DNA of 64,000 nucleotides from Phormidesmis sp. (GTDB taxonomy: Bacteria > Cyanobacteriota > Cyanobacteriia > Leptolyngbyales > Leptolyngbyaceae). The notes below the pieces were generated by a model. It searched no databases. It was not told the origin of the DNA and saw nothing but the letters and a program-made list of their open reading frames with translations. The stretch is taken from positions 2,368,001-2,432,000 of the forward strand of contig CBDFJR010000002.1 in assembly GCA_965248535.1 (NCBI GenBank). The letters are read 5' to 3'. The first letter of the stretch is position 1, and each line of letters begins with the position of its first letter. This document shows positions 39,047 through 58,279 of this stretch, piece after piece. The position numbers and the translations under genes were made by a program.

Positions 39047-39622
39047 ATGCACGAAAAATTATTGGGAAAGTCCCTCACTTTGCAGGAATTTTGCACTTGC
39101 ACCCAGACTTACCGCAAGTATGCAGATCTCATTGACCCTTATCCGCAAAATCTGGAAGAGACGATTCCAGCGTTGGAGGCTCTGTGTCTGCATCTCCTTG
39201 ATCCAATCATTGCTCACTTCGGGAGAGAGCGATTTCAGCTTACGTATGGCTTTTGCTCAAAGGATTTGAAGCGGTTTCTGAGCCAGAAAGACCCGGAGAC
39301 CAGAATGAAGAATGGTCGGGTTGATCCCAGTCGAGATCAGCACATGGTGCATGAGGTAAATCGGAGTGGCAAGTATTACTGCGATCGCTTAGGGGCTGCC
39401 TGTGATTTTCGGATTCTAGGGGTGGAGAGCGATCTCTTAGTGGACTGGATTTTGGAGCAGCGATCGCCGTTTGATTCACTGTATTTTTATGGCAGCGATC
39501 GACCGATTCACATCAGCTATGGGGCACAGCACAAGCGAGAAGTTTGGACGTTTACAGAAAAGGGAGTTCCAACGCGGCAAGGGATTGAGCGTTGGGTTGA
39601 GTTGACGAAAGAGCAGGTTTAG
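39047..39622 (+). CDS. Peptidase M15-like protein
   Basis: LTYGF, DQH, GAACDF, PIHISY (H-D-H metal ligands). Confidence 0.6.
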   Translation: MHEKLLGKSLTLQEFCTCTQTYRKYADLIDPYPQNLEETIPALEALCLHLLDPIIAHFGRERFQLTYGFCSKDLKRFLSQKDPETRMKNGRVDPSRDQHMVHEVNRSGKYYCDRLGAACDFRILGVESDLLVDWILEQRSPFDSLYFYGSDRPIHISYGAQHKREVWTFTEKGVPTRQGIERWVELTKEQV

Positions 39623-39869: not shown

Positions 39870-41045
39870 CTAACTGTTGAAAAGCGCACTTATAAACTCT
39901 TGCCCATTTCTCTGCAAATCGCCCTGTAGTGCAAACGCGATTGCCTGAACTCGAATGTCTCCCATTTTATAAACTGCATTTCTGCCAAAATCTTGTGGAT
40001 ATACTAAAACTGCTTTGCTCACCTCTTTGGTCACAGCATAAGTAGTGATTTGATATAAGTCAGAATCACTAATTTTCCGTTTATACTTAGTATCCAGGAC
40101 ACAATATACTGAACCACTTCTTGTGTCGTATATTACTAAATCAATTTTGAGAAAGCGATTTTCCCTAGGCTCAATCAAAATTCTTTCTTGCTTCCTTAAA
40201 GCATAGCCTGCGGGCAAGTTCTGAGCCAACCACTCGGCGACAAATACTTCAAAAAGCTGAGCCATGTTTACTAGAAAAGCAAGCATGGTGTAATCTCCTA
40301 AATAATGACTAGCTCCGGTGCTTTCTACGAAAAATCTGCATAGTGCGTGTAATGGATGATAATCTTCATTCAGGCGGTTGTAACTTCTGTTCGTGCAGTC
40401 ATATGAGCTATATGGATATATTGTGGCTATACCTCGTAGCGCCTGATATGATTGGCGAATTAGCGGCAAGCTGTGAGAACACAAACCGCTATTGACAATT
40501 AGGAACAGCGCCCAAGCTAAAATTTGGTTCTCTGGAACATCACCAGTAAGCTCTTGATAGCAGCATTTTAAGTTTACTTCCCACGGATTGTAGATTGCGT
40601 GTTTGATATCTATGCGCCCTCGAACACGAGGAAGGCGTTCGGCTGCTGAAACATACGTTTGATAAAATCCTTTTTGTGCTTTTCTTAGTACTTTCGATGC
40701 TAAAAGTTCAGCTAGGCGCTCATAAAAGCCTTCAATAGTAGCGCAATTAACTAAATTGTCTTGAAAGCTAATATTCAAGCCATAGGCGTACTCTAACATC
40801 TGAAATAAATTGCTAATCTCGACCTTCGGAATTAACCTCAATGTGATTTGTGAATTTAGAGGAATGAAGCCGACCCAACCCCTAGAAATTAACCTCCACT
40901 GATGGTCTGTTCCAGCAGAAGGAAACTCCACAGAAATCTTATTTCCATACCGACTTCTAAGAAATTTTCCAATGTGAAGAGGTAGCAATTCCTGGGACAG
41001 TTGAAGCGGAGCATATTCGTCTAGCTCAATTATTCGTTTGTTCAT
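39870..41045 (-). CDS. mcrC: McrC-family endonuclease subunit
   Basis: WVGFI..LIPK, ENQIL, RLNEDY, FLVNMAQLFEVFV, IDLVI..VLDTKYK, DLYQITTY. Confidence 0.9.
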   Translation of the reverse strand: MNKRIIELDEYAPLQLSQELLPLHIGKFLRSRYGNKISVEFPSAGTDHQWRLISRGWVGFIPLNSQITLRLIPKVEISNLFQMLEYAYGLNISFQDNLVNCATIEGFYERLAELLASKVLRKAQKGFYQTYVSAAERLPRVRGRIDIKHAIYNPWEVNLKCCYQELTGDVPENQILAWALFLIVNSGLCSHSLPLIRQSYQALRGIATIYPYSSYDCTNRSYNRLNEDYHPLHALCRFFVESTGASHYLGDYTMLAFLVNMAQLFEVFVAEWLAQNLPAGYALRKQERILIEPRENRFLKIDLVIYDTRSGSVYCVLDTKYKRKISDSDLYQITTYAVTKEVSKAVLVYPQDFGRNAVYKMGDIRVQAIAFALQGDLQRNGQEFISALFNS

Positions 41046-41048
41046 GTC

Positions 41049-42530
41049 TCACAATCCTATCTGAGACATAATAGCGCCCCATCTAAATTGATCTAACCTT
41101 TGGCGTTGTGTGAAAAAATACTCTTCTAAATATGGCTCAATCTCTGTTTTCCATATGACTTCGATGTTTTCAGCTAGGTCATCGCACAGGAAAAAGGATG
41201 ATCCTATTTCATAACTCGGATCATCAATTTCTCGATTGAGAGATTCTAGAGTTTCGATAAGCTTCTCTATCGAGAAAGGCAATTCTTTTCCTGCGTGGGA
41301 TCGTCTCAACACATCATAATCAGGTTGTAAAGCAATAAACGCAAATCTGCGACGCAGTGCGTAGTCTATCAAAGCGATAGATCGGTCAGCCGTGTTCATT
41401 GTGCCAATAACAATCACATTTCGAGGAATTTCAAAAAGCTTGCCGCTTGCCAAAGGAATTTTTTTATCACGATATTCTAGCAAGTACATCAATTCGCCGA
41501 AAACTTGAGCAAGATTTGCACGGTTCATCTCATCCAAAATGAGGACGCAGATCCCCTGATAATTTTTTGCCTTTTCGCAGAAGTCTAGAAATCTACCATT
41601 CTTGTATGGATAGGTCAAAGTGCCAGATCTAGTGGAGACTGGACGAATCCCTTGAATAAAATCTTCATAGCTGTAGGCTGGATGAAACTGCACTACGTCG
41701 TGAAAGCCACTTTCACCAGTGATGTGACGAACCAAATGCTCTGCAATGAAAGTCTTACCTGTACCAGGCGGACCATACAATATGGCTTGCTTCTTGCGTT
41801 TGATTACTTTAATCCACTGACCTAGTTTTTCCTCTGGCAGATACGTCGCGTTCGCACAGTCTTCTAGTGAATATGCTGATTGATGCAACATCTGACCAGA
41901 ATTAACTTCTTGTTCAGCAAATGAGACTGAAACTGTATCTTCTGGAGAACTTATAGCACCTTGCTCAGAAGCATTCGGAGTCAGGTAAGCAGCTTCTGGC
42001 GAACCAGAAACTTCTATTTCAGCAGGAGTGTCATTGCCTTGAATATCTTCGATTTGGTCAAACAGCAGACCTTGATTGTCTGACGGAGATAATCTCTCAC
42101 TTATTTCTTCGCGAATTGTGTCCCGAACTGATTGAGATTGAAAGGAAGACCAGACCTCATCGTTGATTTTGATATAAGGTACACCTCGCCTAACCGATGC
42201 TGGGTAAGCAGGGTTAATCGTCTCAATATCAACACCTTCTGAGGGTTGAGGTATCCAAACCTGTAAAGGTTCTTGATCACTTCGGAGCCTGATATATGGG
42301 TTGGAGAACTGCCGCTCAAGAACTTGGTTACTAGCTCGCTCTGGAATTAAGGTTTTGAAGAAATTAAAAAGCTCAGTGTACTCGAATTTATTGGGATGAT
42401 CAGGTTGGTTGTTCAAAAGTTCAAGTACAGACAAAATCAGTAAAGACTTGTATTCTTCTTTCCACTCTGGATTGAGCCTTGTCCGAATTCTCTTAATCCA
42501 TTGAATAACTTGAAAGTCTGGACTTGGCAT
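41049..42530 (-). CDS. mcrB: McrB-family AAA+ GTPase with atypical N-terminal domain
   Basis: GPPGTGKT, QFHPAYSYEDFIQG, DEMNRAN, MNTADRS, ALRRRF. Confidence 0.92.
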   Translation of the reverse strand: MPSPDFQVIQWIKRIRTRLNPEWKEEYKSLLILSVLELLNNQPDHPNKFEYTELFNFFKTLIPERASNQVLERQFSNPYIRLRSDQEPLQVWIPQPSEGVDIETINPAYPASVRRGVPYIKINDEVWSSFQSQSVRDTIREEISERLSPSDNQGLLFDQIEDIQGNDTPAEIEVSGSPEAAYLTPNASEQGAISSPEDTVSVSFAEQEVNSGQMLHQSAYSLEDCANATYLPEEKLGQWIKVIKRKKQAILYGPPGTGKTFIAEHLVRHITGESGFHDVVQFHPAYSYEDFIQGIRPVSTRSGTLTYPYKNGRFLDFCEKAKNYQGICVLILDEMNRANLAQVFGELMYLLEYRDKKIPLASGKLFEIPRNVIVIGTMNTADRSIALIDYALRRRFAFIALQPDYDVLRRSHAGKELPFSIEKLIETLESLNREIDDPSYEIGSSFFLCDDLAENIEVIWKTEIEPYLEEYFFTQRQRLDQFRWGAIMSQIGL

Positions 42531-42575: not shown

Positions 42576-44633
42576 CTAACTTTTGCGTTCCGCTTGTTTT
42601 GCTCGGATTGTCGATCGCACCAATTTCACTCGATATGGATCAGCGTCTTTGCGCCACACCACTCGATGCCCCTTCAACTCAGCACAATGATCCTCTAGGC
42701 AAGATCGCCACCCTCTATGATCGCTGATCCGTTTCCAATCCTCCAACAATCCCCAATCCTCTTCCTGCCGACTGAGCTTGGCAAACTTCTCATAACCGGG
42801 ATACTCCGACGTGACCAGCAAATCCTTTTGATGCAACACAGGTGGATTTTCGGCTGAATCATAGTCGCGGTAATGGACATGCAAATCTCGTAAATCAATT
42901 TGCATACTCGTGTGCAGCGCAGGATGGGGATCAGCATCAAAGTCTGGATAAACCAGGTACGTAATTTTAGGCTTCCGACAGTGAAATTTAATCACGTTCG
43001 CTTCTTCAGGGCGACCAATCGTGCGCGACGCACAGCCTTCGTAGAGGCGAAGGAGCGGATCAAGAGTGTCGATCGCGGATAGATGAACCCAAAGGGAATT
43101 CGCTAGCTTCTTCCCGATCGGGCTGTTTTGACATCGTTCTGCCACTACGTCCAAATTGCCCAAACTCATGAGCATGAGATCTGCGGCTGTGCAGGCTTGC
43201 TGAAAGCCTCCAAACAGACTCTTGAGGTCGGTCTGAATCACGCTTGCCAAATCTCGCATCTTGGGACGATGACCAAAATGACTCAGCGCCAGGTAAACTA
43301 GCAAGTCTTGGCGACGGCGATTGCTAATCTCATCCCATTCTTGCGGATTCGTGGCTTGCAAGACAATCTGAAACGCACGGCGGAGATTGCCAAACTCCGC
43401 GCTGAGGGTTTCCGTTTCGGGCAATTCCTCCAGCGTGGGCAATCGTCCCCGCTCGGTGAAGAAAGTCATCAGTGGCGCGAGCTGATCCTTGTAATCTTCA
43501 AATCGCTTGTTCTGAAGCTGCACTTTGGGGACGCTGACGCGCGATCGAAACCGAGCGGCGCGGAAATTCTGTGCTTGTGCCTCATCTCGAAAGACAAAAT
43601 AAATCCCTAGCGCAACCGGAACCGCGTCTACTCCTAGCACCTGGTCGATGTAAAGCTTGAGTTCTTCCTGGTCGTAATATTTCTGAAAGGTATTGCGGCT
43701 GGTGATAATGCCATCTCCATAGGCAATTTGGCTATTGCCCTGCGCGATCAATACCTGCGCTGCCACAATCAAAACTTGCTGGGTAAGTTCCCAAGCTTTA
43801 ATTAGAGCCTCTCGCCGCTCTGTTTGGGATTCAACTACATTAATGATGTAGCCCAAATTCACGACATCGGCTGTCACCAATTGGGTATCCGGTTGATAAT
43901 AAGGGTCCCAACCTGAACTGGGATAACCCAATTTGGCGATCCGCTCCAAATCGCCGCCCTGACCGCATCCATAGTCAAAGAATCTCGTCTCTTTCTGAAA
44001 AAGACTTGCTTCCAAGGCGAGACGGACAGGTTTAGAAAAGTCATTGCGGCTGATCGCAGCTTTGTGTCGATCGATCTTGACTTGAGAACTTTGAGAATTG
44101 AGGAGCGATCGCTGAATCAGGGTATGTCCCTGAAACGCAACGCGAAACGCTGCTAATCGTTTTTCCCACGCCAAACGAGTGCCAATCCCACGCGAATTAT
44201 CCAACAACCCTAAAGCCTCTTCTTGACGAGTCAGAGCCGCAAACTGTTGGTAACGCGGATAATCTGGAGCAACGAACGTTTCCTTGCGATGCAAGATGAA
44301 AGGGTTCTCACTGCTGCTGTAGTCCCGGTGATTCACTTCCTGCTTGGCTAAATCAACCTGAAGGCTAGCGACCAGCGCTGGATGGGGATCGCTGTCAAAT
44401 TCTGGATAGGTTAAATACGAGAGGCTAGGTTTATCAAAACTAAATTTGACTAGCGTAACGGCTTCAGCAGAATCGAGGAGTTGACGCGCTTCAGCTTCGT
44501 ATGTTTGTAAAAGCGGATCGAGAACTGGGACGGCTGAAATGTGAACGTAAAGCGCATCCGGCAAAAGTTTACCCACCCGACTTCGCTGGCAGGCACTGGT
44601 GATGGTGCTGAACTCATCAAGGCTACAAAACAT
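42576..44633 (-). CDS. DNA phosphorothioation-associated putative methyltransferase
   Basis: FDYGCGQGGD, GWDPYY, VNLGYIINV; duplicated SYL.YP.FD.DPHPAL..NP..LH.K domain. Confidence 0.85.
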   Translation of the reverse strand: MFCSLDEFSTITSACQRSRVGKLLPDALYVHISAVPVLDPLLQTYEAEARQLLDSAEAVTLVKFSFDKPSLSYLTYPEFDSDPHPALVASLQVDLAKQEVNHRDYSSSENPFILHRKETFVAPDYPRYQQFAALTRQEEALGLLDNSRGIGTRLAWEKRLAAFRVAFQGHTLIQRSLLNSQSSQVKIDRHKAAISRNDFSKPVRLALEASLFQKETRFFDYGCGQGGDLERIAKLGYPSSGWDPYYQPDTQLVTADVVNLGYIINVVESQTERREALIKAWELTQQVLIVAAQVLIAQGNSQIAYGDGIITSRNTFQKYYDQEELKLYIDQVLGVDAVPVALGIYFVFRDEAQAQNFRAARFRSRVSVPKVQLQNKRFEDYKDQLAPLMTFFTERGRLPTLEELPETETLSAEFGNLRRAFQIVLQATNPQEWDEISNRRRQDLLVYLALSHFGHRPKMRDLASVIQTDLKSLFGGFQQACTAADLMLMSLGNLDVVAERCQNSPIGKKLANSLWVHLSAIDTLDPLLRLYEGCASRTIGRPEEANVIKFHCRKPKITYLVYPDFDADPHPALHTSMQIDLRDLHVHYRDYDSAENPPVLHQKDLLVTSEYPGYEKFAKLSRQEEDWGLLEDWKRISDHRGWRSCLEDHCAELKGHRVVWRKDADPYRVKLVRSTIRAKQAERKS

Positions 44634-44911: not shown

Positions 44912-45820
44912 ATGGCAGTAGAGCAGATCACCCACAGCAATAGCGCCTCAAACCCAGTTGTGTTTGCGCGTCATGAGACCTTTCATCCCCGGTTCGGTTG
45001 GCTCAAGAAAGGGTTTGATCGCGCCTCTGCCGATTCGGAAATTTTCCTACGAGAGGATGCTCCTGTTCGCTTGGGCGTAGGAAAGAATATGGTGCGATCG
45101 ATTCGCTATTGGTGTCAAGCCTTTAAGCTGCTGGAAGCTGATCAGCCCACAGAATTTGGCATTCAATTATTGGCAGAAGCAGGCTGGGACTCATTCTTAG
45201 AAGATCCTGCCTCCTTGTGGTTACTGCATTGGAAACTACTGGAACCACCCTGTTACGCCACGACATGGGAGTTTGTCTTTAACCAGTTTCGCCCCGTCGA
45301 GTTTTCCGTTGAGGAATTGTTTAATCAGCTTTGTGAGTACCGCGATCGTATCGCTCCTCGGATGGCAGAGTCATCCTTGCGAAAGGATATTAGCTGCCTC
45401 CTGCGAACCTATACCCAACAGGTGAGCGGTAAGAATTCGGTCAGTGAAGACTCGCTAGATTGCCCCTTTTCCGAATTGGGGTTGCTCTATCCAGCAGGCA
45501 ATTCTCGCACTTATGGATTTCGGATGGGGCAAAAGCCAACGTTACCCGCCGCTGTTGTCGTCTATGCCTGTTTACATTACGCCGCTCGATCGATGGAAGG
45601 ACAAAAGCGAATTCCGATTGGCAAGCTGCTTTACGACCCCGGTAGCCCTGGGCAGGTGTTTCGTCTGACAGAAAGCGCCTTGGATGCTGCAATTACAGTA
45701 TTCGCAGATGAGACTTCCTTGGGAATCAGCGATGCCGCCGGAAAACGAGAATTTTTCTTTAGCGATGAGCCGATCGATAAAGCAACGAATATCCTGAACA
45801 CGTATTACAGAGCGAGGTGA
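44912..45820 (+). CDS. sspB: DUF4007 protein, SspB-like
   Basis: FARHETFHPRFGWLKKG, LGVGKNMVRSIRYW, LWLLHW, DCPFSELGL. Confidence 0.85.
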   Translation: MAVEQITHSNSASNPVVFARHETFHPRFGWLKKGFDRASADSEIFLREDAPVRLGVGKNMVRSIRYWCQAFKLLEADQPTEFGIQLLAEAGWDSFLEDPASLWLLHWKLLEPPCYATTWEFVFNQFRPVEFSVEELFNQLCEYRDRIAPRMAESSLRKDISCLLRTYTQQVSGKNSVSEDSLDCPFSELGLLYPAGNSRTYGFRMGQKPTLPAAVVVYACLHYAARSMEGQKRIPIGKLLYDPGSPGQVFRLTESALDAAITVFADETSLGISDAAGKREFFFSDEPIDKATNILNTYYRAR

Positions 45821-45824
45821 GGCG

Positions 45825-48482
45825 ATGAAAAATCAATCTTTAGCAAGCTATTTCAGCCTGCATCGCCGCTACCATCGCTCTATTAATCTAGAGCGAGATT
45901 TTGACAAGGTTGATGCGGTTGAGGGATATGTTCTGACAGAGCGATCGAGTGAAGCGCTCCAACGAATCGTGACGGCAATCGGTAATCCTAAAGCGCATCG
46001 TACCTGGACTCTCACTGGGACATATGGCTCAGGTAAATCAGCATTTGCGCTTTATCTAACTGCGCTCTGCGCTCCAGAAGACAGCTCATTCGATGAGGCG
46101 GCTTGGACGATCGCAGAACGGACACTGCCAAAAAATAGCCCTATTTTTCAGGCAATTAGAGAGTACTTGCCGACAGAAGGGTTGCTGCGGGCAGTCGTTG
46201 CGGGAGCCAGAGAGCCGCTTGGATGGACGATTATTCGAGCGCTTGCCAATGGAATAAGGCAAATCGGGTCGCGCAAGCGAAGATCAGCAGTGATACAGGC
46301 AATCCTGAATTGGGATAGTGAGGTGGCAGTGGGTCGCTGCCAGATTACAAATCAGCAAGTGTTGACGACACTCCAGCAGCTAGCCCAGATTGCAGGTATG
46401 GATATTTTGCTGGTGATTGATGAGTTGGGCAAGAACTTAGAATATGCTTCTCATCATCGCAGCACTGAGGATTTGTACTTACTTCAGCAGATCGAAGAGT
46501 TGCGCCATCAGGATCATCAGGTCTATTTCCTGGGCTTGTTGCATCAGTCGTTTGTAGGCTACAGCGAACAGTTAACCGCGATCGAGCAAAATGAATGGAC
46601 AAAAATTCAGGGGCGGTTTGAAAATCTGCAACTAACTGAGTCTCCGAGTCAGATGACGCGGCTGATTGGCTTAGCGATCGAGCAATCTGATTCGATTTCA
46701 TTAGTCTGTAATCAGCAGGCGAACCTTTGGTATCAAGCACTTCAAGCAACGTTAGTTGATCAAGAAGTATCTGCGAAAGTTTTAGCCTCAACGTATCCAC
46801 TGCATCCCATTACGGCGTTAGTCCTACCGCTGTTATGCACTCGCTATGCCCAAAATGATCGCTCGCTCTTCACCTTTTTAACGAGTGATGAACCTCACGC
46901 CTTGACTCGATTCCTTCAAACTCACGAGCTAGAAGAAGATGAGTTTTCGACGCTTAAACTGCATCAGCTATATGATTATTTCGTGGAATCTGTTGCAGGG
47001 TTGGCTTCTCAAGTAAATCTTCAGCGCTGGGTTGAAATTCAGACTCTAATTCAGGATGCGCGATCGCAAGATGAAGACATTCTCAAGGTACTGAAAACCA
47101 TCGGAATTCTTAACCTAATTGCTTCAACAGGAACACTCAAGGCAACACCTGACTTGGTTTCATTGGCACTGTGCGATCGTCCAAATGATAAAACAGCGTT
47201 AAAGCATTGGCGTAAACAAATTGACTTGCTGAAAAAACGCGGCACGATTATCTACCGCTCTCAGGCAGACGAACTGCGGATTTGGGAAGGATCAGATTTC
47301 GACGTAGAGGCAGAGATCGTTGAACACATTGAAAAGTCGCAGCGAGTCTCCCTTGCTGAGCTTTTGACGGCGACTCATCCGCTCAAGCCAATGGTGGCAC
47401 AGCGCCACTACACAACAACCGGGAACCTTCGCTACTTTGAACAACGCTATGTGGATAGCCTGACTTCATTGGGGGATCTGCGAACGTCGCTACCTGGTAC
47501 AGATGGGCTAATTCTTTATTGGCTTGATATTGATGCTCCACGAGAGATCCCTAATCAGACTGCTGATGGTAAACCTCTGATCTTAATCACAACGAACCAG
47601 CTTGATCTACTTCGGATTCGATCGCAGCATTTGCAAGCGCTTAAAACAATTAAAGATGCACCAGAGTTAACGTCCGATGGTGTAGCAAAGCGAGAAGTGA
47701 GGCATCGCCTAGTGTTGGCTGGTAGCTTGCTCAATGAGACCATGCAGCAAGCATTTAGTTGGGCAGAAAAACAGAATCGGTGTTGGGTCGATGGAGAACG
47801 ACACAAGATTTGCAGTACTCGTGAGTTTCAAGCTGCTCTTTCTGAATTGTGCGATCGCACCTATCCGCTAGCTCTACGTCTCGACAATGAATTGATCAAT
47901 CGTCGGGATTTAACGTCTCAAGGTGCAAAAGCGCGGCGAGAACTGATCGAAGAAATGCTGAAATCTGCTCATCTTGAAAGATTAGGGCTAGAAGGGTACG
48001 GTCCTGAAGTGGCGATGTACTACTCAGTTTTAGAGGCAACCGGAATTCATCGACAGGAAGCGGGTGAGTGGGATTTCTATCCGCCTCGTCTAGAGTCTGG
48101 AGTAGAAACAGTTTGGGAAAGAATAGAATCTTTTTGCATCGCATCAGTTGATCAACAGCGATCGCTAGATTTGCTCTATCGAGAATTAGAATATCCGCCC
48201 TATGGCGTGAAGGCAGGCGCAGTGCCGCTGCTGCTGGCGGCGTTCTTACTTCACCGAGCCGAGGATATTGGGGTTTACAAGGATGGAACGTTTATTCCTG
48301 TTCTTGGTCCTGAACATTTTGAATTGTTGGTGAAAGCGCCTGAGCGGTTCTCAGTTAAACATTTTGAGATTGCTGGACTGCGATCGCAGGTCTTCCAAAA
48401 GCTAGAGGTGGTGCTGAAGTCTCCCAATAGCAAAACTCCATCGGGAGTGCGGAATGCGTCTTTGTTAGCGATTGCGAGTTAG
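45825..48482 (+). pseudogene. sspC: SspC-like ATPase, apparently 3'-truncated by the convergent HNH gene
   Basis: RSINLERD, GTYGSGKS, IDELGKNLE, YPLHP, AQNDRSLFTFL, PPYGVK. Ends abruptly, its stop overlapping the HNH stop. Confidence 0.7.
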
Positions 48483-49924
48483 CTTCGAGAGTAAGCCCAG
48501 CCAGCTTCAAAGCCTAAGCTCGTAGCGAGAGACATCAAGGGTTGTATGGTAGAACTGTAAGCCTTGCTGAGTTTCTCAAAGTCAGTTAAATCATCTTTCG
48601 TATTCAGTCTCAAATCAGAAATATAGGAATCAATAAACTTGTTCCAGGTTCTATCTTTGCTCATCTTTTCTTTCCAGACGATTAAGCCAAGATGATGCAC
48701 TCTCACAAAGGAATCAAAATAGACTGACGAAGGAATTATTTTAGATTTTGAAGAATTAACATCGCCAAATGTTGGAATTAGATTCCAGATTTGATCATGT
48801 GCCACGAATGACCAGGGAAGATAATGATCAAGAGAAAGTTTAGAATCTGCTCTCAAAGGGCGATTTGAGTAAATGCAGCTAATTTCGTCTGTATGCTCTA
48901 GAACTGCTTGCCAGTACTTTGTTTGGGAAGTTAAAGCGCCTCTTCTAATTTGAGGAAAAAGTTTATTTGAGATTGCAGGTGTACTTGGATTTCGGCTTTG
49001 CATATATTGCAGCCATTCCCAAGCAACCCATCCTCTTACAATGGAATAATTCATTCTAATGTAAGAAGTCCATTCGGGAGATAGGTAAATGGATTTGCAT
49101 GAATTTGGGGAATCACCATCAAGTTTGTAAAGCGGTTTAGCTGTATCGAAATGCTGTTCAGCTAGAAGCATGATTATTTCATTTTCGATATGATCGTTTC
49201 TTACAGCGTCTCGGTTCTGGCTCTTGTAAGCTTTCAACTGCTGAGATAGAAAAGGTGTAATCAGTCGAAACGGTACATATCTCATTAACGAATCTTTCCC
49301 TATCAAAAGGCTGTCTAGGTTTCGTTTTGAGAGTTCTTCTCTAAGCAGTTCTTTCTCTGATTCGTCGAAAGCTGGCTTATCAAGATTTAGAGCAAGAGAG
49401 TCTAGCTTGATAGCAATTTTGTCTTGTGTGCCAAATGATAATTTGAAATAAGTATGCGGATACCAAGCATTGACTAATATTTCAATCAGCAACTCTCTAA
49501 AGCTGATTGGCGACTCAGCATCAAAGTTTCGTCTTCTCAGAATGTCGAGCAAGGAGAGAAAGAAAACGTACTTATAAGAAGTGGTTGTTTTATCGAAAAG
49601 TCTGGAGAAAGCAGCAACGTTTAAGCCTTCGTTTTCAGGAAGCCACCCGAAGCCCTCACCGACAGGATTTGTCCATGTTTCTGATGAACTGGCTCCTATA
49701 GACAAATCGGCGGCATATAGGCTGATAAACTCGTCGGCTGCATCAGGATTAATCGACCTGAGTGCTGCAATGATGCCTTGAACAGTTTCCGAGTTAGGAT
49801 CTCTGACTTCAGCGACCCATCGATGAACGTTAGACCGAGCAATACTAAGCTTTTCAGCCAATTTACCCTGGCTGATGCTGTGACTTGTCAAAACTTGCCC
49901 TAGAACCTTGCCTGCTTTTCCCAT
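48479..49924 (-). CDS. XRE-HTH fused HNH endonuclease
   Basis: ISQGKLAEKLSIARSNVHRW; SYKYVFFLSLL; CIYS..LDHYLPWSFVAHDQIWNLIP..VNSSKS. Confidence 0.88.
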   Translation of the reverse strand: MGKAGKVLGQVLTSHSISQGKLAEKLSIARSNVHRWVAEVRDPNSETVQGIIAALRSINPDAADEFISLYAADLSIGASSSETWTNPVGEGFGWLPENEGLNVAAFSRLFDKTTTSYKYVFFLSLLDILRRRNFDAESPISFRELLIEILVNAWYPHTYFKLSFGTQDKIAIKLDSLALNLDKPAFDESEKELLREELSKRNLDSLLIGKDSLMRYVPFRLITPFLSQQLKAYKSQNRDAVRNDHIENEIIMLLAEQHFDTAKPLYKLDGDSPNSCKSIYLSPEWTSYIRMNYSIVRGWVAWEWLQYMQSRNPSTPAISNKLFPQIRRGALTSQTKYWQAVLEHTDEISCIYSNRPLRADSKLSLDHYLPWSFVAHDQIWNLIPTFGDVNSSKSKIIPSSVYFDSFVRVHHLGLIVWKEKMSKDRTWNKFIDSYISDLRLNTKDDLTDFEKLSKAYSSTIQPLMSLATSLGFEAGWAYSRS

Positions 49925-49962
49925 GCTTCTGATCGTGTCAGAGAAGTTTGTTTCCGTAAATA

Positions 49963-50013
49963 GAAGCCAATTGGCTTCCAACTCGTGTTATTGTGGAAAC
50001 TAATTGGTTTCCA
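49963..50013. promoter_or_regulatory. Twin palindromic operators
   Basis: GAAGCCAATTGGCTTC (49963-49978, perfect) and TGGAAACTAATTGGTTTCCA (49994-50013, one mismatch). Confidence 0.7.
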
Positions 50014-50040
50014 TTTATTTAACCTTCAGGATGAACTTCG

Positions 50041-50232
50041 ATGCGATACGAAGACCTTCTGCACCCTTGGATAATCGTTCGTCACCTTCCAAATCTGCAA
50101 AATCTCACAGTGAAGCGGTTTCGCCGTCGGAATGATGCTGATGAGTGCCTGAAAGCCCTCCGCCGTCTTTCCCCTAACGGGGAATTCATCATCATGTTTG
50201 ATGGTGCGGTTCAAACACAGGAGAAGCTCTAA
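50041..50232 (+). CDS. Small hypothetical protein divergent from the HTH-HNH gene
   Basis: LHPWIIVRHLP..RFRRRNDA; recalled as a small cyanobacterial family found opposite XRE genes. Confidence 0.65.
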   Translation: MRYEDLLHPWIIVRHLPNLQNLTVKRFRRRNDADECLKALRRLSPNGEFIIMFDGAVQTQEKL

Positions 50233-50489
50233 TGACCAGAGTTAGACATTTTCAGGAGTTAGATTATGCTTTGACTCTGAGAATCCTTCATGATACGAGG
50301 GGCTGTGATAGAAGCACGATTCAAGTTAAAGACTTAACTGGTAAAGTGTTTGAGACGTGGCATCGTAGGTATAGGCTGTGGCGCAATCCAATTCATGGAA
50401 CAGCTAAAAACCTTGCTGCAATCAAGACTATCTATAACGCGATCGACATTGACGATTACGTTAGAAAAAACGGTTACTACGATTATTAG
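50232..50489 (+). CDS. Hypothetical protein
   Basis: TAATG coupling; GGAG RBS. Confidence 0.5.
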   Translation: MTRVRHFQELDYALTLRILHDTRGCDRSTIQVKDLTGKVFETWHRRYRLWRNPIHGTAKNLAAIKTIYNAIDIDDYVRKNGYYDY

Positions 50490-50568
50490 CCTTTCTTCTC
50501 AGTCGATCGCTGCACTCCTTGCTATTGATAGAGCGCTTCTTTCTACTGAAGAATTGCTCCTTTGCCAT

Positions 50569-50690
50569 AGTGGACAGTTTCTTCGTGCTGATGGACAGTC
50601 TCTTCGTGCTGATGGACAGTTTCTTTGCAACGATGGACAGTTTCTTCGTACTGATAGATAGTTTCTTCATGACTGATAGATTGTTTCATG
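50569..50690. repeat. 21-bp tandem repeat, about 5.5 degenerate copies
   Basis: Unit GATGGACAGTTTCTTCGTGCT starting at 50569, 50590, 50611, 50632, 50653. Confidence 0.9.
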
Positions 50691-50844
50691 TCGCCGATCG
50701 AATAGCTCTTGCTGCTGATGCACTATTTCATTAGCCAGAAGAACGGCTCCTTTGGTAAAAAGAAACGTTCCTACCGTGAGATAGAAACGTTGTCTAATTA
50801 ACCCGATTGAAGCAAGTTGAACAAAGGTTGTCCGATTCAGGTAA

Positions 50845-51339
50845 TCAGGAAACCCCAGCAGGAATCGGTTGTGAGCTAGACTCAACCGTGTCTTTCTTGT
50901 TGCGACGAGCAAACTGCTGCTTGAGTTGTTCCACAACAATCTTCATTCCTGGCATATCATCGTGAGCTTTGGCAGCATCGTATACTTTCAAAGAAGCGGT
51001 ATACGCCTCACATTGAGCGGTGAAATAGGTGTCATCAACTAGGCTGTGCAGTTCAGTTAGAGCCATCAGCACCGGATAGAGATCTTCCATCAACTTCACG
51101 TCTTTCTGCATCTCTTCTACGTCAAACGATCGCGGTAAGCAATCGGTATGTTGTTGCGCGGCATCCAAACAATTGAGCATGAAACCACGACTGCGATCGC
51201 CAACTTTAGGCGCGGCTTTGCGATCGTCTACGGTCAAATGCACCAAAAAGGGCATGGCTTGCTTAATCGTGTCGATCGCTGCCATGACAGCTTTGCGATC
51301 TTCTGCGCTTAACGTGGCACTAATTCGGTTTGATGTCAT
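50845..51339 (-). CDS. Helical hypothetical protein
   Basis: 164-aa ORF with globular amphipathic composition. Confidence 0.75.
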   Translation of the reverse strand: MTSNRISATLSAEDRKAVMAAIDTIKQAMPFLVHLTVDDRKAAPKVGDRSRGFMLNCLDAAQQHTDCLPRSFDVEEMQKDVKLMEDLYPVLMALTELHSLVDDTYFTAQCEAYTASLKVYDAAKAHDDMPGMKIVVEQLKQQFARRNKKDTVESSSQPIPAGVS

Positions 51340-51429
51340 ATAAATTACACAAAAAACAGCTTGTACTTAGACGGTACTGCTCCTGTTATATCGTTGGGAA
51401 AGTTAAAACCCCTGTGATCAAGCTCACTG

Positions 51430-51751
51430 CACTTGTGAAATCGGTTTATCTTTTAGCCGCCGCACTCGCTATGCACCTAATGACGCGCTTCTCAGAACGC
51501 TTGTGCTTGCATCTGTGTCAACTCGGATGGAGTTTCAAGAATTTTTAGCAAAATTGCATCAGAAATACGGCTTTATCATTGGCGATCGCCAAGCCGAAGC
51601 TCTGATCAACTCCGGTGATGCCGATCGTGAAGACTTCGTGGCAAATGCCGAACGGCTCGAACGTCGCCTTGCCAGTATCGGGCTGCTCAAACGCCTCTCC
51701 GATGCCTGTGCCTACGTCCAAAACCCCTTTGCCTCAGAGGTGAAATCATGA
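51430..51751 (+). pseudogene. 3' remnant of an SspG/DptG-like gene
   Basis: IGLSFSRRTRYAPNDALLRTLV...LASIGLLKRLSDACAYVQNPF. In-frame TAA at 51404 upstream; ATGA overlap with the next gene. Confidence 0.65.
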
Positions 51752-54700
51752 AAACTATCGAATTGATTGGTCAAGTCGCGGCTGACTTTCTCAAGCGATC
51801 GATTCAAACCGATGAAGCCAGCGAAGGGGTTGCACGATTCCTGCTCAATCGTCTAACTGCCCAACAGATCGCGGCAGTCTGCAAAACGATTCTGCAAGAC
51901 TCCGAGCTTTCTCCGCTCATCAAAATTCAAATTCCGCGCGATTTAGTCGAAAGCTACAATTTACCTGAAGAAATTCTCACTGTTGAATCAACCGTTCACT
52001 TACGACATTCAGCGTGCGATCGCCCTGCGCTCCTGCTAGTCAATATTAGTGACGACCAAGCCCAATCCCTAAAGGATATTACTTCAGTCGGCGCTCAAGA
52101 ATTGAGAGGGCAAATTGACTGTTGGATTGACCTAGCCGCGAGGGATTTAGCAATTCCGTCTGAGCAAATCGAGTATTGGCGTAAAGCTCTCAACGGACTG
52201 CAAAAAGTTGGCACCCCTAGCTTAGAAAATTTTGCGGAATTCATTGTTCAGACGCGATCGCGCATTCTTGACCAAAGCCTTCCCGTCGTCGATGCGCTGG
52301 GCTGGGCACTTCCCGCGCTGCGCCTTCCTCGTGATTCTGGTTACTTTCGAGCGATTCCTGAAACCCAGTGGGGACAAACTCAGCGTTGGGAAAACCTATT
52401 TCAGCAAGCCTTCACAAAACGCGCTTGTCTATTGCTAAAGCAAACGCCTAACCGTAAACCGATCGATGAGCAAGAGCTACAAACTGCCTTCGATAAAGTA
52501 AAAGATGATATCCCTGCGATCGCTCATCCCATTATTCAATCATTCATCGCGAGTTCCGCAGGCTGGAATCCTCATGCTGAAAATCTCGCTCAGTTCGAGT
52601 GGGAATCTGAAAATATCAACACACTTTTCTCTGGCTTACAGGCACAGAAAACAGACATTGCTTCTCTCACGCTAGAGTTTTTCAATGATGAGTATCCCGA
52701 TGTTCTGACTGAAGAGGAGTCGCAGTACATCAATGCACTCAAGAAGAAACGTAGTAAGCGTGAGGCACTAGACGAGGATCGGGAGTTCTATGATGCCCAT
52801 CGTCCAGAGCTTGAAGATAATCCTAAACTTAAAGCCAAGTGGGATAAATTCGTCTACGGGCAACCCCTTGAATGCACAGATTTCATGATTGGGTTACTCC
52901 AAGCCTTTGAGCGCCTCTTTAACCAAGCAGAGACGGTTGATGGTGTTAAATCGCTCAAAATCGAGACGCAGAAGAAAGCTGGCAAAAGTAAATGGCTAGA
53001 ACTGAATGCTGATGTGGGTCGATATTTCTGCACCCGCTATCGAGGAATTGAACAACTAACTGCCGCACACATTGAATGGGACACTCACTGGCTATTTAAG
53101 TACGAAACCCTGCTCGAAGAAACTCAGAAAAAGCAGAAGTCGAAATATCGTGAGAATACCTCCGCTGCAAAAACCGCAACAGAAATTAAGTTCTACATAG
53201 AGATGCGGGATAGCGCTAAGACATTAATTGCAAAAACTCAACTCGTTTGGCGCTGTAACCCGAATGCGATCGGGATGGAGTTGAGCAGTGATTTAGCAAG
53301 GCTTCTGAATAAATCTCCCTTTCAGCTTTCAACAGTGGCGCGAGAGCTAGTTAGCAGAAAGGGGCGTTTGCAGGGAATTTCCCTATCTGATGTCGGAACT
53401 TTGATGGCTACATACAGCAAAGATCGCGGTTCCTTAATCGGTAAATATGAAAATAAGGACGATCTCGCCAAGATTCTACCTAAACAACTTAAACAAGCCG
53501 TTGCAGAAGGTCGCCTCTCGAAGGAAGGGGCAGATGCGATCGCAGATGCTTGGAAAGCTTTTACAGATCGATATCGGGCTGCGATCGCAGGGTTTACATC
53601 CGCAGACGGACGAGGCATCGCCAATCCAGAATTGCTACACCAGTGCGAAGCTTACAAGGCGCTGCTCAACACGATCCTCACTCATGTCAAAGGCGATCTC
53701 AATCGCATCAACTTGTACCAACCTGTGTTGCGTTTAGGCTGTATTCAAGTTGAACGCGGTAAACCTGCGGCGATCGTTGCGCCTTGGCATCCTCTGAGAT
53801 TAGCCTCTCTAGCAATCAAGGTTCGTCAACTCGCAGGCTTGCTCCAATACATTATCTCCACCCCAGAAGTGAATTTTGGAGATTCTCGCCTATTCTTTGC
53901 CGACTTACGAAACGAACTCGATCACCCTTACTATCCCGAAGTCTGCGTCGGCTACCAAGGGCAGCAACCCGAACTTCTATCTGTCTCCGATACGCTCAAT
54001 GACTATAGTTTGATGGAGCGCCCGACACGAGACGAAAGCGATCGCACCACTAATGAGAACCCTGCCGAAGCAGCCGATCGATTACTTGGCATCATTCGTC
54101 GCTATGTCGAACTAATGCCCCACGAGAAGGCTAATCTGAGCGTGGTGCTGTACCAAACCGACTCGATTAAACTGCCTCAAGCGATCGTCCATAAACTGAG
54201 CGAAGAACTTCAAGACGATCGTGAGGAAGTTCGCTGTCAGGTTATTCTGCGTCATCGAAATGGACAGAAACTCACTCAACTCTACGAGCAAATGCTAGAG
54301 AGTTCTGATGCTGACCCAGATGCGTTTATTGCTAGCGAAGTTTCTCAAGACTTTATGGCAAGACTTCGCATTTCAGTCATGTCTCATGATGTCCCGACCA
54401 CTAACCCTAGAGAAGGCAAGTTTGCTGACATCGTGTTTCTACAAGATGCAATTTCCCGGCAAGCGAAAGTTGTCTGGCAACCGTCTCCTTTCGATAGCGC
54501 CGCAGCCGATCTTCTAATTCACTCCCCTGCGCGTTGGTCGCGTAAGCGCCCTTCTGCGACAGATGAACTCAAGTCCACAGTTTACCTTACCTGCCCTAAG
54601 CAACCCGTAGTCGGACAGATCTACCTCGACCTCGTGTACAGCATTATTGAGGGCGAAGACTGCTCTCCTGAGCAACACTTTCTACCTGCTCGTCAGATTT

Positions 54701-57078
54701 CTTTTCAAGACGAAACCACAAAGACAACCTTTGATGAAAGTCATCGTTTAGGAGAATGGGTCGTCAACTACGATGATCTCTTAGAAAGGAGACAACTGGT
54801 TAATCAAGGCGTAAAGGTCATTCGCTACCAGCAGCATCGTACCGACGAACGCAATTTCTTAGTCTCTTCAGATGCGTCATTGAATGTTCTCAAAGTGCTA
54901 GTAAGGAAGCGACTCGGTGATCTCAATCTGGCACTGGAAAGTGATCGCATTGATAAACTTGTAGAGCGCTTGATTAACGATGCCAATGCAGTTTCTGGTG
55001 ACATTGTGTTGCGAGCTGCGAAATGCGGCAGATTTGCGAGTGAACTGATGGGCGTTGTTCTTAGCAAGGCACTCATTACAGCAGAAATGGGAGCGCAAAA
55101 TCCCATCGGCTGGTACTTCCTGGATGACTATGCCTCCTGGCTCGGACAGAAAGAGGGGCAAATTGCTGACATGATGGCAATTTCACCGCAGTACATTGAT
55201 GATGAGCCTGTTCTCAAAGTCATTGTTTCAGAAGCAAAATATGTTGATGTCGCTGGCTTAGCCGATGCCCGCAAGACTTCTCAGAATCAATTAAGGCAGA
55301 CGGTCGATCGTATTGCCGATGCTCTGTTCATTAGTCCTGGTCGCCTCGATCGCGATCTTTGGCTTTCTCGTCTCAGCGATCTTCTCATTGATGGCATTGA
55401 GTTTAGCTCCAACAATAAAGTGAATATTGAGCAGTGGCGTGAACAGATTCGCTCAGGGACTCTTCGCATCGATTTATCTGGCTATTCACACGTTTTCGTC
55501 ACGGGCACGAATGATAGCAATGCTGAAGGAGAACGATCGCCCATTCCCAAAGTGCAGCGATGTTTTCAAGAAGTCTTCGATCGTGAATCTGTTCGCAAGC
55601 TGGTTCTGGCTTACGAGTCGGGACAGTCGTTGTTTCCCACACGAGAGCAAATCGGCGATGACAAGCCGTGGACAGTGACTCAAGCCTTGCCACCTGCAGA
55701 TCGAGTCACCTGGGTATTAGAGATTGAGAAAGTAGAAGCCGTAAATGCTACTCCCTTAGTAGCGGATGTTACTCCATTAGTAGGAAAGGAAGATAACCAG
55801 ACAGAGAACCCTGACCAGCTAGTTCAGCTAACCCTTCCTGATGAGCCACTCCAACCTACACCCGCCGATTCTTCTATCGTTTCAAATGTTCAGGCTCTCC
55901 ATAGTTGGGCAAGTCCGGCACTTGTTGCGTGGTGGCAGCAAGGACAAGCACAAAGCAATCAGAGTGATGCAGCAGCAGAAAAATGGCTAGAAGAAACTGC
56001 CGGAAAATTGCGGACGGCATTACTGGGATACAGCCTACAAGCCAAAATTGAAGGCAAGCGATTGACTCCCAATGCGGCGATCGTGCGATTCAAAGGTTCT
56101 GATCATCTGAAGCTAGAGGACATTGAGAAGAAGCGATCGCAACTCTTAACCACTCATTCCCTAAACGTAATCAGCCTCTATGGTCAGCCAGGTGAAATTG
56201 TGGTTTCGGTTGCCCGTCCTCAGCGCCAAACCATCTCTCTACGTGAGGTGTGGGAGAAACGAAAAGTCAATCGCTCTTCTTCAGGAATTAACCTCAGTTT
56301 TGTCCTTGGAGTCAAAGAAATCGATGGCGAACTGCTCTACCTCAACCTAGATAGTAGCTTCGAGAATCTGGAGCAACACGCTCCTCACACCTTAATTGCT
56401 GGAGCAACGGGAAGCGGAAAATCAGTTCTGCTACAAAATCTCCTGCTCGATATTTGTGCAACCAACTCGCCTAAACTCGCCCAGATCTACCTCATTGATC
56501 CCAAGATGGGTGTCGATTATGCCAATATTAGCGACCTTCCTCATCTCAAAGAAGGCATCATTATCGAGCAAGAACGCGCGATCGAGATTCTGGAATTTCT
56601 AGTCGAAGAAATGGACAATCGGTACCGTAAATTCCTTCCTCAGAAAGCAAAATCTTTGCAGGATTACAATTCCAAAATGCCTGAGCAGGATCGACTCCCG
56701 GTACTTTGGCTTGTTCACGATGAGTTTGCCGAGTGGATGCTGATCGATGAGTACAAAACGGCTGTATCTGCTGCTGTACAGAGATTAGGTGTGAAAGCGA
56801 GAGCCGCAGGAATTCATCTCATTTTTGCCGCACAGCGTCCTGATGCCAATGTGCTTCCAGTGCAGCTTAGAGATAATTTAGGCAATCGACTAATCCTAAG
56901 AGTCGAAAGTGTCGGCACTTCAGAAATCTCACTCGGACAAAAGGGTGCAGAGAACCTCTTGGGTAAAGGACATTTAGCGGCTCGTTTAACAAACCAATCC
57001 GATCTGATTTACGCTCAAGTTCCCTTCCTTGGGGATGAAGACATGGCTACAGTCGCAGAAATTATCAAACAGCAGTGA
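51748..57078 (+). CDS. Large FtsK/SpoIIIE-domain protein, SspH/DptH-like
   Basis: PHTLIAGATGSGKS, LIDPK, VHDEFA, ARAAGIHLIFAAQRP; nuclease-like ADMMAI..SEAKY; PT-cluster context. Confidence 0.8.
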   Translation: MKTIELIGQVAADFLKRSIQTDEASEGVARFLLNRLTAQQIAAVCKTILQDSELSPLIKIQIPRDLVESYNLPEEILTVESTVHLRHSACDRPALLLVNISDDQAQSLKDITSVGAQELRGQIDCWIDLAARDLAIPSEQIEYWRKALNGLQKVGTPSLENFAEFIVQTRSRILDQSLPVVDALGWALPALRLPRDSGYFRAIPETQWGQTQRWENLFQQAFTKRACLLLKQTPNRKPIDEQELQTAFDKVKDDIPAIAHPIIQSFIASSAGWNPHAENLAQFEWESENINTLFSGLQAQKTDIASLTLEFFNDEYPDVLTEEESQYINALKKKRSKREALDEDREFYDAHRPELEDNPKLKAKWDKFVYGQPLECTDFMIGLLQAFERLFNQAETVDGVKSLKIETQKKAGKSKWLELNADVGRYFCTRYRGIEQLTAAHIEWDTHWLFKYETLLEETQKKQKSKYRENTSAAKTATEIKFYIEMRDSAKTLIAKTQLVWRCNPNAIGMELSSDLARLLNKSPFQLSTVARELVSRKGRLQGISLSDVGTLMATYSKDRGSLIGKYENKDDLAKILPKQLKQAVAEGRLSKEGADAIADAWKAFTDRYRAAIAGFTSADGRGIANPELLHQCEAYKALLNTILTHVKGDLNRINLYQPVLRLGCIQVERGKPAAIVAPWHPLRLASLAIKVRQLAGLLQYIISTPEVNFGDSRLFFADLRNELDHPYYPEVCVGYQGQQPELLSVSDTLNDYSLMERPTRDESDRTTNENPAEAADRLLGIIRRYVELMPHEKANLSVVLYQTDSIKLPQAIVHKLSEELQDDREEVRCQVILRHRNGQKLTQLYEQMLESSDADPDAFIASEVSQDFMARLRISVMSHDVPTTNPREGKFADIVFLQDAISRQAKVVWQPSPFDSAAADLLIHSPARWSRKRPSATDELKSTVYLTCPKQPVVGQIYLDLVYSIIEGEDCSPEQHFLPARQISFQDETTKTTFDESHRLGEWVVNYDDLLERRQLVNQGVKVIRYQQHRTDERNFLVSSDASLNVLKVLVRKRLGDLNLALESDRIDKLVERLINDANAVSGDIVLRAAKCGRFASELMGVVLSKALITAEMGAQNPIGWYFLDDYASWLGQKEGQIADMMAISPQYIDDEPVLKVIVSEAKYVDVAGLADARKTSQNQLRQTVDRIADALFISPGRLDRDLWLSRLSDLLIDGIEFSSNNKVNIEQWREQIRSGTLRIDLSGYSHVFVTGTNDSNAEGERSPIPKVQRCFQEVFDRESVRKLVLAYESGQSLFPTREQIGDDKPWTVTQALPPADRVTWVLEIEKVEAVNATPLVADVTPLVGKEDNQTENPDQLVQLTLPDEPLQPTPADSSIVSNVQALHSWASPALVAWWQQGQAQSNQSDAAAEKWLEETAGKLRTALLGYSLQAKIEGKRLTPNAAIVRFKGSDHLKLEDIEKKRSQLLTTHSLNVISLYGQPGEIVVSVARPQRQTISLREVWEKRKVNRSSSGINLSFVLGVKEIDGELLYLNLDSSFENLEQHAPHTLIAGATGSGKSVLLQNLLLDICATNSPKLAQIYLIDPKMGVDYANISDLPHLKEGIIIEQERAIEILEFLVEEMDNRYRKFLPQKAKSLQDYNSKMPEQDRLPVLWLVHDEFAEWMLIDEYKTAVSAAVQRLGVKARAAGIHLIFAAQRPDANVLPVQLRDNLGNRLILRVESVGTSEISLGQKGAENLLGKGHLAARLTNQSDLIYAQVPFLGDEDMATVAEIIKQQ

Positions 57079-57085
57079 GTCAACC

Positions 57086-58279
57086 ATGCCCCACAGCAAG
57101 TTAGAGAATAATTCACCTCAAAAGCCCATCTATCTGGACTATCACGCGACTACGCCGACCGATCCGCGAGTTGCAAGTTTGATGCTGCACTACATGACTG
57201 AGGAATTTGGCAATGCTAGCAGCACCGATCATGAATATGGCGATCGCGCTGAAGCTGCCATTAAACAAGCCGCCAAAAACGTTGCCGATTTAGTCGGAGC
57301 TTCACCACGAGAAATCATCTGGACATCAGGCGCAACTGAAAGCATAAATCTTGCCATCCAAGGCAGTCTTTCTCCCAATCCGCAAAAGCCGCATCGAATC
57401 GCTCTGCCTCCGATCGAACATAAAGCCGTTCTCGACACCTGCCATGCTCTTGAAAAGCGCGGTTGGGCAGAGCTAATTTATTTGCGAGTCGATTCTAAAG
57501 GTAAGCTCGACCTCGACCATTTAGAGCAAGTTTGTGCTGAGGGAGTGTCTTTACTCTGCGTCATGGCTGCAAATAACGAGATTGGTAACATCTACCCAAT
57601 TCAGGCGATCGGGCGAATTGCTCAACGTCACAATATTCCGTTTCTTTGCGATGCCTCCCAAGCCGTTGGTAAGATTCCAATTCAGTTTGAGGAGTGGGGC
57701 ATTACTTATCTCGCAATCTCTGGGCATAAGCTTTACGCTCCTAAAGGAGTTGGGGCGATCGTTGTGCGTAAAGGACATCATTTAGAGCCAATGATGTTTG
57801 GGGGCGGGCATCAGAAGGGAATGCGATCGGGGACGCTCAACGTTCCAGGAATTGTGGGATTGGGAGAGGCTTGTCGGCTGCGATCGCTAGAAATGGAAGC
57901 CGATGAACGTGCGATCGCGACCCAGCGTGACAGGCTCCAAGCTTTACTTCTAGAGAAGTTCTCCAATCTAGTCATCAATGGGGATGTAGAACACCGTTTA
58001 GCGGGCAATCTTCATCTTTCAATTCCTGGAATTCCTAACAGTGCCGTCATCGCTAGAATTCGTCACCAGTTGGCAATTTCAACGGGTTCGGCTTGTTCAT
58101 CAGGCATCGAGTCGCCTTCTCATGTGCTTCAAGCCTTACGCTTGCCAGAGGATATCGTCGAAGGCGCGTTCCGAATTGGACTCGGAAAATTTACGACGGA
58201 TGATCAGGTTAACAAAGCATTTGAAGTTCTCTCTGATGCAATTACTCAGGTTCAGCAGGTTCTCTGTGCGATTTCTTAA
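57086..58279 (+). CDS. Cysteine desulfurase (IscS/DndA/SspA-like)
   Basis: IYLDYHATTP, SGATES, SGHK (PLP lysine), STGSACSSG. Confidence 0.93.
   Translation: MPHSKLENNSPQKPIYLDYHATTPTDPRVASLMLHYMTEEFGNASSTDHEYGDRAEAAIKQAAKNVADLVGASPREIIWTSGATESINLAIQGSLSPNPQKPHRIALPPIEHKAVLDTCHALEKRGWAELIYLRVDSKGKLDLDHLEQVCAEGVSLLCVMAANNEIGNIYPIQAIGRIAQRHNIPFLCDASQAVGKIPIQFEEWGITYLAISGHKLYAPKGVGAIVVRKGHHLEPMMFGGGHQKGMRSGTLNVPGIVGLGEACRLRSLEMEADERAIATQRDRLQALLLEKFSNLVINGDVEHRLAGNLHLSIPGIPNSAVIARIRHQLAISTGSACSSGIESPSHVLQALRLPEDIVEGAFRIGLGKFTTDDQVNKAFEVLSDAITQVQQVLCAIS

Follow-up and report, generated by a model that had tools for sequence, protein, structure and literature searches.

What does the McrB protein encoded at 41049..42530 (-) of this window (the whole stretch of DNA analysed here, 64,000 nucleotides) recognise? 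The initial annotation likened its N-terminus, by eye, to the DNA sulfur-binding domains (SBDs) of phosphorothioate (PT)-dependent nucleases, and read the gene with its neighbour as an McrBC enzyme that restricts PT-modified DNA. Sequence comparison and predicted structure support that reading. It is reasonably probable, in our assessment, that the operon encodes a GTP-driven, PT-dependent type IV restriction enzyme that would bind Rp-PT through six tethered SBDs and cut through McrC. Papers are cited throughout by PMC number, for those parts of them that were accessible.

The mcrB gene, called as an open reading frame with domain matches, encodes 493 aa arranged as an SBD, an acidic linker and an McrB AAA+ GTPase. 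The GTPase (41052..41876 (-)) starts near residue 218, and residues ~218-478 match E. coli McrB at E 1.1e-53. Its Walker A (residues 253-260), Walker B (D333/E334), MNTAD signature (NxxD; N379/D382) and ALRRRF arginine-finger motif (391-396) are all intact. The linker (residues 151-218; 41877..42080 (-)) is acidic as first described, with 13 D/E and no K/R in 68 aa. It is nearly unconstrained: dN/dS between the source genome, G000, and genome G468 is 0.79 in the linker, 0.10 in the SBD and 0.11 in the part of the GTPase available for comparison. Three bases separate mcrB from mcrC (39870..41045 (-); 391 aa; PF10117 E 3e-43). In alignments McrC R224 falls on the GTPase-stimulating Arg263 of Thermococcus gammatolerans McrC, and a nuclease motif of the PD-(D/E)xK type, D302...D318-T-K320, is present; the roles of such motif residues, Arg263 included, are taken from PMC7680126. 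Judged from sequence, the features of the McrBC class are in place: the McrB motif set, and an adjacent McrC with a stimulating basic residue and a PD-(D/E)xK motif. Guanine is recognised largely through the main chain (PMC7680126), so GTP use by this McrB is a prediction that its sequence does not settle.

The N-terminal domain (aa 1-150; 42081..42530 (-)) was assigned by profile and predicted structure. Its residues are covered by no Pfam, NCBIfam or PADLOC model, and an NCBIfam scan at E<=1 gave no match, including to NF045808 (PT-DNA-binding SBD-HNH endonuclease). A PDB search with the single sequence did not detect an SBD and returned one chance match (E 0.57). Relatives of the domain were collected by a full phmmer scan (17 representatives at E<=0.001) and by word-indexed searches (ten more). 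The host is cyanobacterial, and the closest named relative among the matches was a Leptolyngbya protein. A 15-row profile of the domain, searched against 177,635 PDB sequences (E<=10), had a sole match, SBD-Hga (8H0L), at E 1.3e-4 over 130 positions; the same profile matched cyanobacterial NF045808-like SBD-HNH proteins at E 1e-4 to 1e-8. An AlphaFold model of the domain (pLDDT 91.4, pTM 0.86) has the SBD winged-helix fold. The top eight Foldseek rows for this model were all SBDs (best E 3.6e-5, TM 0.72), as were the top five rows of the VIA structure search: Hga at Z 16.6 (rmsd 2.9, 142 aligned), ScoMcrA at 11.6-12.0 and SprMcrA at 11.0. Hga is therefore the nearest solved relative by both sequence profile and structure. 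In the Atlas, 26 of 30 matches carry PF26340 (DNA-SBD_ScoMcrA), on 19-37% of members, with a score of 0.93. Against an SBD-specific reading counts that the fold is shared with winged helices generally, the first non-SBD rows in VIA being those of ORC1/Cdc6 at Z 9.5-9.8. The profile, Foldseek and VIA values nevertheless place the likeness, noted at first by eye, beyond chance, and by profile and fold matching the domain is an SBD homologue.

The motifs quoted in the initial annotation are all found in the domain: YKSLLILSVLELL (27-39), NKF (47-49), ELFNFF (53-58), NPYIRLRSD (77-85) and VW (91-92). Solved SBDs have cavities formed by H116/R117/Y164/P165/A168 in ScoMcrA (PMC6224610), Y31/Q32/Y78/P79/A82 in SprMcrA (PMC7470945) and H25/K26/L75/P76/H79 in SBD-Hga (PMC10602919); by HMM alignment only, these five sites map to McrB Y27/K28/N77/P78/R81. 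The first half of the predicted sulfur pocket is encoded by codons Y27-K28 (42447..42452 (-)), equivalent to Sco H116/R117, Spr Y31/Q32 and Hga H25/K26. The second half is encoded by codons N77-P78-Y79-I80-R81 (42288..42302 (-)), with P78 aligned to the floor proline (Sco P165, Spr P79, Hga P76). Conservation was counted in 35 stored proteins with the domain, many of them near-duplicates, over the rows having a residue at the site. K28 is kept in 33/33 rows, Y or F at 27 in 33/33, P78 in 31/32 and R81 in 29/31. K28 and P78 match ScoMcrA residues, R117 and P165, whose mutation disrupts binding, while A168R is tolerated (PMC6224610); a Tyr equivalent to site 27 is natural in SprMcrA (PMC7470945). 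By alignment, then, Y27, K28 and P78 are kept, and the floor proline and basic residue (K/R/Q) of the predicted sulfur pocket are conserved in the McrB domain. Of the outcomes that the initial annotation listed as refuting its proposal, two were checked, another fold and loss of the sulfur pocket, and neither was observed: the predicted fold is that of an SBD and the key pocket residues are present.

The rim of the predicted pocket is unusual. Site 77 is polar in the McrB family (Q13, N10, E7, H1 and Y1 over 32 rows), against Tyr or Leu in solved SBDs, and site 81 is Arg, against Ala or His. At the non-polar lid and wall sites, again by alignment mapping only, Y27 equals Spr Y31, whereas N77 and R81 are unlike all three solved SBDs. 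An SBD fold retuned to read a different mark, or to read unmodified sequence as the McrBC relative LlaJI does (the upstream methyltransferase, MTase, then possibly serving as protector), would account for the atypical N/Q77 and R81, for the 8-15% identity of the domain to solved SBDs and for invariant residues, W11 and Y51 among them, that are peculiar to the family. Some McrB relatives do recognise unmodified DNA (PMC12707154); 6mA is read by winged-helix domains of other kinds, and pairs of a wH-NTPase with McrC are on record (PMC11037411). We consider such retuning unlikely: the floor Pro and the Lys hardly vary, uncharacterised cyanobacterial SBD-HNH proteins too have Gln or Arg at site 77, the fold searches were headed by SBDs rather than by 6mA readers, and the MTase is usually found without an SBD-McrB partner, as described below.

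The domain occurs on more than one kind of McrB. Walker A is found in 26 of the 35 proteins carrying it, and their GTPases are 25-62% identical to that of the window. The remaining nine comprise eight proteins of <=207 aa, two of which are broken mcrB genes, and one of 539 aa. The attached GTPases form four types, at 56-62%, 41%, 36-38% and 25% identity to the window McrB, the last having an NVD (NxD-type) signature. A tree of the SBDs was mostly unresolved (three GTPase groups were starred pairs, and the other seven rows were unresolved) and was not used for the order of events. Several domain-bearing proteins also stack DUF3578 or EVE (EVE in P0026, from precomputed domains), as would be expected of a swappable reader. 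HNH was absent at E<=1e-4 from 17/17 representatives, and from P0001. The McrB of G003, 57% identical in the GTPase, was dropped as a relative after its N-terminal domain was found to differ.

We then have to ask what the neighbourhood says about function. The initial annotation noted that mcrB lies directly downstream of a PT-associated MTase. The position is correct: the TIGR04096 PT-associated putative methyltransferase (42576..44633 (-)) ends 45 bases upstream of mcrB on the same strand. As an argument from context it carries little weight. TIGR04096 MTases occur in 32/90 family genomes, and among 30 MTase loci examined 13 adjoin sspB, 7 adjoin dndC and five are without a downstream ORF. 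SBD-mcrB was found at only 3/30 (two directly behind the MTase and one, in G446, behind a small gene); MTase adjacency therefore says little, and a fixed MTase-McrBC unit was rejected. Behind the MTase lies a slot of variable cargo, in which many different genes are found. Its far edge in the window, for the stretch that mcrBC occupies, is a 191-aa ORF convergent with mcrC (39047..39622 (+)). In G012 (L110) the 191-aa ORF, which is without a family match, directly abuts the MTase, marking the mcrBC position as an insertion/deletion slot. In both ssp and dnd loci the gene directly behind the TIGR04096 MTase is repeatedly a 172-aa ORF of unknown family (L085:19255-19773, L045:1451-1996, L099, L100, L111), which G000 lacks.

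The gene was also said to stand beside an Ssp cluster. It does adjoin ssp genes, but the cluster is without its writer core. On the other side of the MTase lie sspB (44912..45820 (+)) and an sspC (45825..48482 (+)) cut at 885 aa, the G446 protein having 1169 aa; further on come a 3' remnant of sspG (51437..51751 (+)) that matches residues 418-523 of G446 SspG, sspH (51748..57078 (+)) and an sspA/dndA-type cysteine desulfurase (57029..58279 (+)). Between them a ~3 kb cassette (48479..51436 (.)), made up of an HTH-wingedhelix-HNH gene (48479-49981 (-)) and small ORFs, occupies the place that the sspC 3' end, sspD, sspF and most of sspG take in intact loci. A full-length SspC/SspD/SspF/SspG set is thus not present, with SspC at 885 of about 1100 aa and SspG reduced to residues 418-523. 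SspD, SspF and DndC have no match in the source genome (99.76% complete), and its single PAPS-reductase-family gene is of the CysH type; G000 therefore very likely writes no PT. The leftover genes show dN/dS of 0.03-0.09 at dS 0.9-2 (sspB, truncated sspC, sspG remnant and sspH; G000 vs G468, both with the same deletion). Either these ssp remnants still function, or recombination carries the cassette into clusters that are intact. Both cassette junctions recur in contigs of a sequencing run that is possibly the source sample, and this recurrence is not independent support.

The cassette nuclease (HTH-X-HNH_4) has a winged-helix middle domain with invariant SYK and VPFRL motifs reminiscent of the SBD pocket. 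Comparison of this middle domain with SBDs gave an hhalign probability of 1.9% and a VIA Z of 7.5, with Cdc6 tied with SBD-Hga, and it had no Foldseek match at E<=0.001. The nuclease has a match in 21/90 family genomes, in some to the HTH only, and several of these matches share contigs with TIGR04096 MTases. The defence island is flanked by a DUF2779/Cas4-like nuclease gene (37517-38977 (-)) and a PIN-domain gene (58363-58809 (-)). Beyond lies a NACHT-type WD40 region (59073-63503 (-)), in which an NNH5/NA-iREase1 ORF (62409-63503) is followed by a separate WD40 ORF (59073-62246); the two are possibly one split gene.

The more informative context is not MTase adjacency but the deletion of the Ssp writer in the source genome, set beside the destruction of McrBC in two genomes where the writer is whole. 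Profile searches covered overlapping, all-cyanobacterial genome samples and found the domain type in four genomes. The 401-genome profile search returned G000 and 12 weak SBD-HNH-type matches only; further profile searches of cyanobacterial genomes added none (0/401, 0/5, 0/151, 0/5, 0/173), a genome pattern scan gave one locus, and plasmids, phages and metagenome pattern scans gave no SBD-McrB relatives. G000 has an intact McrBC, the only one of the four, and a deleted writer. G468 (taken as one count with L015) has the same deletion junction and one TAG at mcrB codon 127; its mcrC was not found in the 1060-contig assembly. In G446 sspA-D, F, G and H are whole; there an insertion sequence cuts off the SBD, and the McrBC remainder jumps from McrB residue ~256 to McrC residue 311. 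In the one-contig genome G832 the ssp cluster is whole and mcrB ends after ~codon 46, the stub abutting a remnant of the same 191-aa ORF that lies beyond mcrC in the window.

Two different McrBC lesions where the writer is whole, and an intact copy where it is gone, are what an enzyme attacking PT-DNA predicts. This reciprocal loss fits a reader toxic to PT-marked DNA, as weak evidence: n is four, the two writer deletions are one event, G468 is broken in both, and defence genes decay often. Could the whole slot then be decaying cargo, its pattern with Ssp coincidental? Three of the four genomic copies are broken, many different genes pass through the slot behind the MTase, and the cyanobacterial profile searches found the domain in only four genomes. 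A 207-aa protein, P0013, joins SBD residues 31-79 (96% identical to the window's) to a DUF2779 piece and is probably another mcrBC deletion, in a very close relative. Decay of this kind is nonetheless highly improbable as the explanation, given the low dN/dS in SBD and GTPase, the intactness of all catalytic motifs and the existence of five further full-length or near-full-length alleles, 86-98% identical over the domain.

All four genomic copies adjoin ssp genes, and the two alleles found there share only 45% identity in the SBD, suggestive of long association or coexistence with Ssp; possibly the specificity of SBD-McrB spares the host's own Ssp mark. SBD-HNH genes lie among dnd-type genes in 11/12 loci (by reading of ORF lists, with three neighbours confirmed by HMM), and an SBD beside a writer therefore need not be toxic. 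That SBD nucleases lie within such clusters is also noted in PMC10853773, which proposes other roles for them. Among the cyanobacterial SBD-HNH loci (L017-L028, L031-L044), which are often inside dnd clusters, four were scanned and all fell below the NF045808 cut-off; several SBD-HNH genes have a stand-alone SBD ORF of ~160-200 aa just upstream.

Such associations are what one would expect if the SBD, like SspE, took PT in the host DNA as its licence and McrBC were an extra restriction arm of SspABCD against unmodified invaders, left an orphan in the source genome. The SBD nucleases so often found inside dnd clusters have indeed been proposed to act against unmodified or differently modified invader DNA (PMC10853773). 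A licensing role is still decidedly unlikely here, since the sole intact copy sits in a genome without a writer and both genomes with an intact writer have destroyed theirs. A host without PT would itself be open to attack by an enzyme that cuts unmodified DNA, as is the case with SspFGH (PMC8092258), and the described SBD enzymes restrict PT-DNA.

We return to the PT-dependent restriction enzyme that we favour. By analogy with solved SBDs, P78 would form the seat of the Rp sulfur, flanked by Y27 and K28, and R81 and R83 would lie on neighbouring phosphates. What is known of McrBC suggests the rest: six SBDs, each on a long acidic tether, would bring the McrB ring onto the DNA at PT sites, GTP hydrolysis would be stimulated by McrC, and the assembly would then translocate and cleave close to a PT site. 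Its targets may be phages or plasmids that have passed through a Dnd+ or Ssp+ host, or else the very gene clusters for PT. The four loci suggest that the enzyme would come into conflict with an active Ssp writer, and that either the enzyme or the writer is then lost. We put the chance that the Ssp mark itself is what it reads at somewhat under even. More doubtful still is the fullest version, in which motor-driven PT-dependent restriction and an McrBC that reads a backbone mark would both be firsts, the enzyme recognising the single-strand Ssp mark at loci that flip between sulfur-writing (Ssp whole, McrBC wrecked) and sulfur-killing (writer replaced by the nuclease cassette, McrBC whole).

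If the proposal is true, the swappable readers of McrBC would extend from modified bases to a backbone modification, and SBDs would gain an effector of a new kind, with a translocating GTPase-nuclease in the place of a fused HNH. The locus would also allow a direct test of one explanation for the frequent loss or breakage of PT systems, their clash with a restriction enzyme that reads PT in the same island. With its unusual pocket rims, a ring of six SBDs would be a candidate tool for mapping PT sites, single-strand Ssp marks among them. Hga is described as alone among SBDs in being reported to bind each of the five natural PT patterns (PMC10602919).

The nearest known systems are the SBD enzymes Hga (SBD + PD-(D/E)XK, PDB 8H0L), ScoMcrA, SprMcrA and EcoWI, which share the winged-helix SBD fold and the Y/H-K and floor-Pro pocket. 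Their effector is a fused nuclease, whereas here it would be a separate McrC driven by an AAA+ GTPase, and the rim residues of the window McrB (N/Q77, R81) differ from theirs. From NF045808 SBD-HNH proteins the window McrB differs in having neither a match to that model nor an HNH. The partners given in a survey that covered 1722 SBD homologues are HNH, SRA, kinase and PD-(D/E)XK, and its accessible part names no McrB (PMC10602919). The SBD-McrB fusion was likewise not found in the literature, including the accessible parts of PMC6224610, PMC7461809, PMC7470945, PMC10602919, PMC12707154, PMC8092258 and PMC7680126; supplements, figures and subscription papers could still list the architecture. 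PMC10853773, supplements aside, has no occurrence of 'Mcr' in its accessible text, and four supplements of PMC11090510 have none of sulfur, ScoMcrA or phosphorothio, 'SBD' there being the substrate-binding domain of Hsp70.

NTD-wH-NTPase + McrC pairs (PMC11037411) resemble the present operon in that both fuse a winged helix to an McrB-like NTPase with McrC. Those pairs stem from a search for DpnI-type 6mA readers and are uncharacterised; neither 'SBD' nor 'sulfur' occurs in the accessible text. The two sets may overlap. The neighbouring sspA, B, C, G and H derive from an SspABCD-SspFGH system; SspFGH treats PT as self, while the window has lost both the writer and sspF, and McrBC accompanies such loci only sometimes, being present at 3/13 sspB-adjacent MTase loci. 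With the McrBC of E. coli K-12 and T. gammatolerans the operon shares the two-gene order, the GTPase motifs, the stimulating Arg and nuclease motif of McrC and a variable N-terminal reader. The McrBC readers named in the accessible part of PMC12707154 are base readers (McrB-N, YTH, EVE) or a B3 domain; the reader predicted here would recognise a backbone modification without base flipping. Judged from sequence and predicted structure, SBD-McrB newly combines a reader and a motor-nuclease that were each known before.
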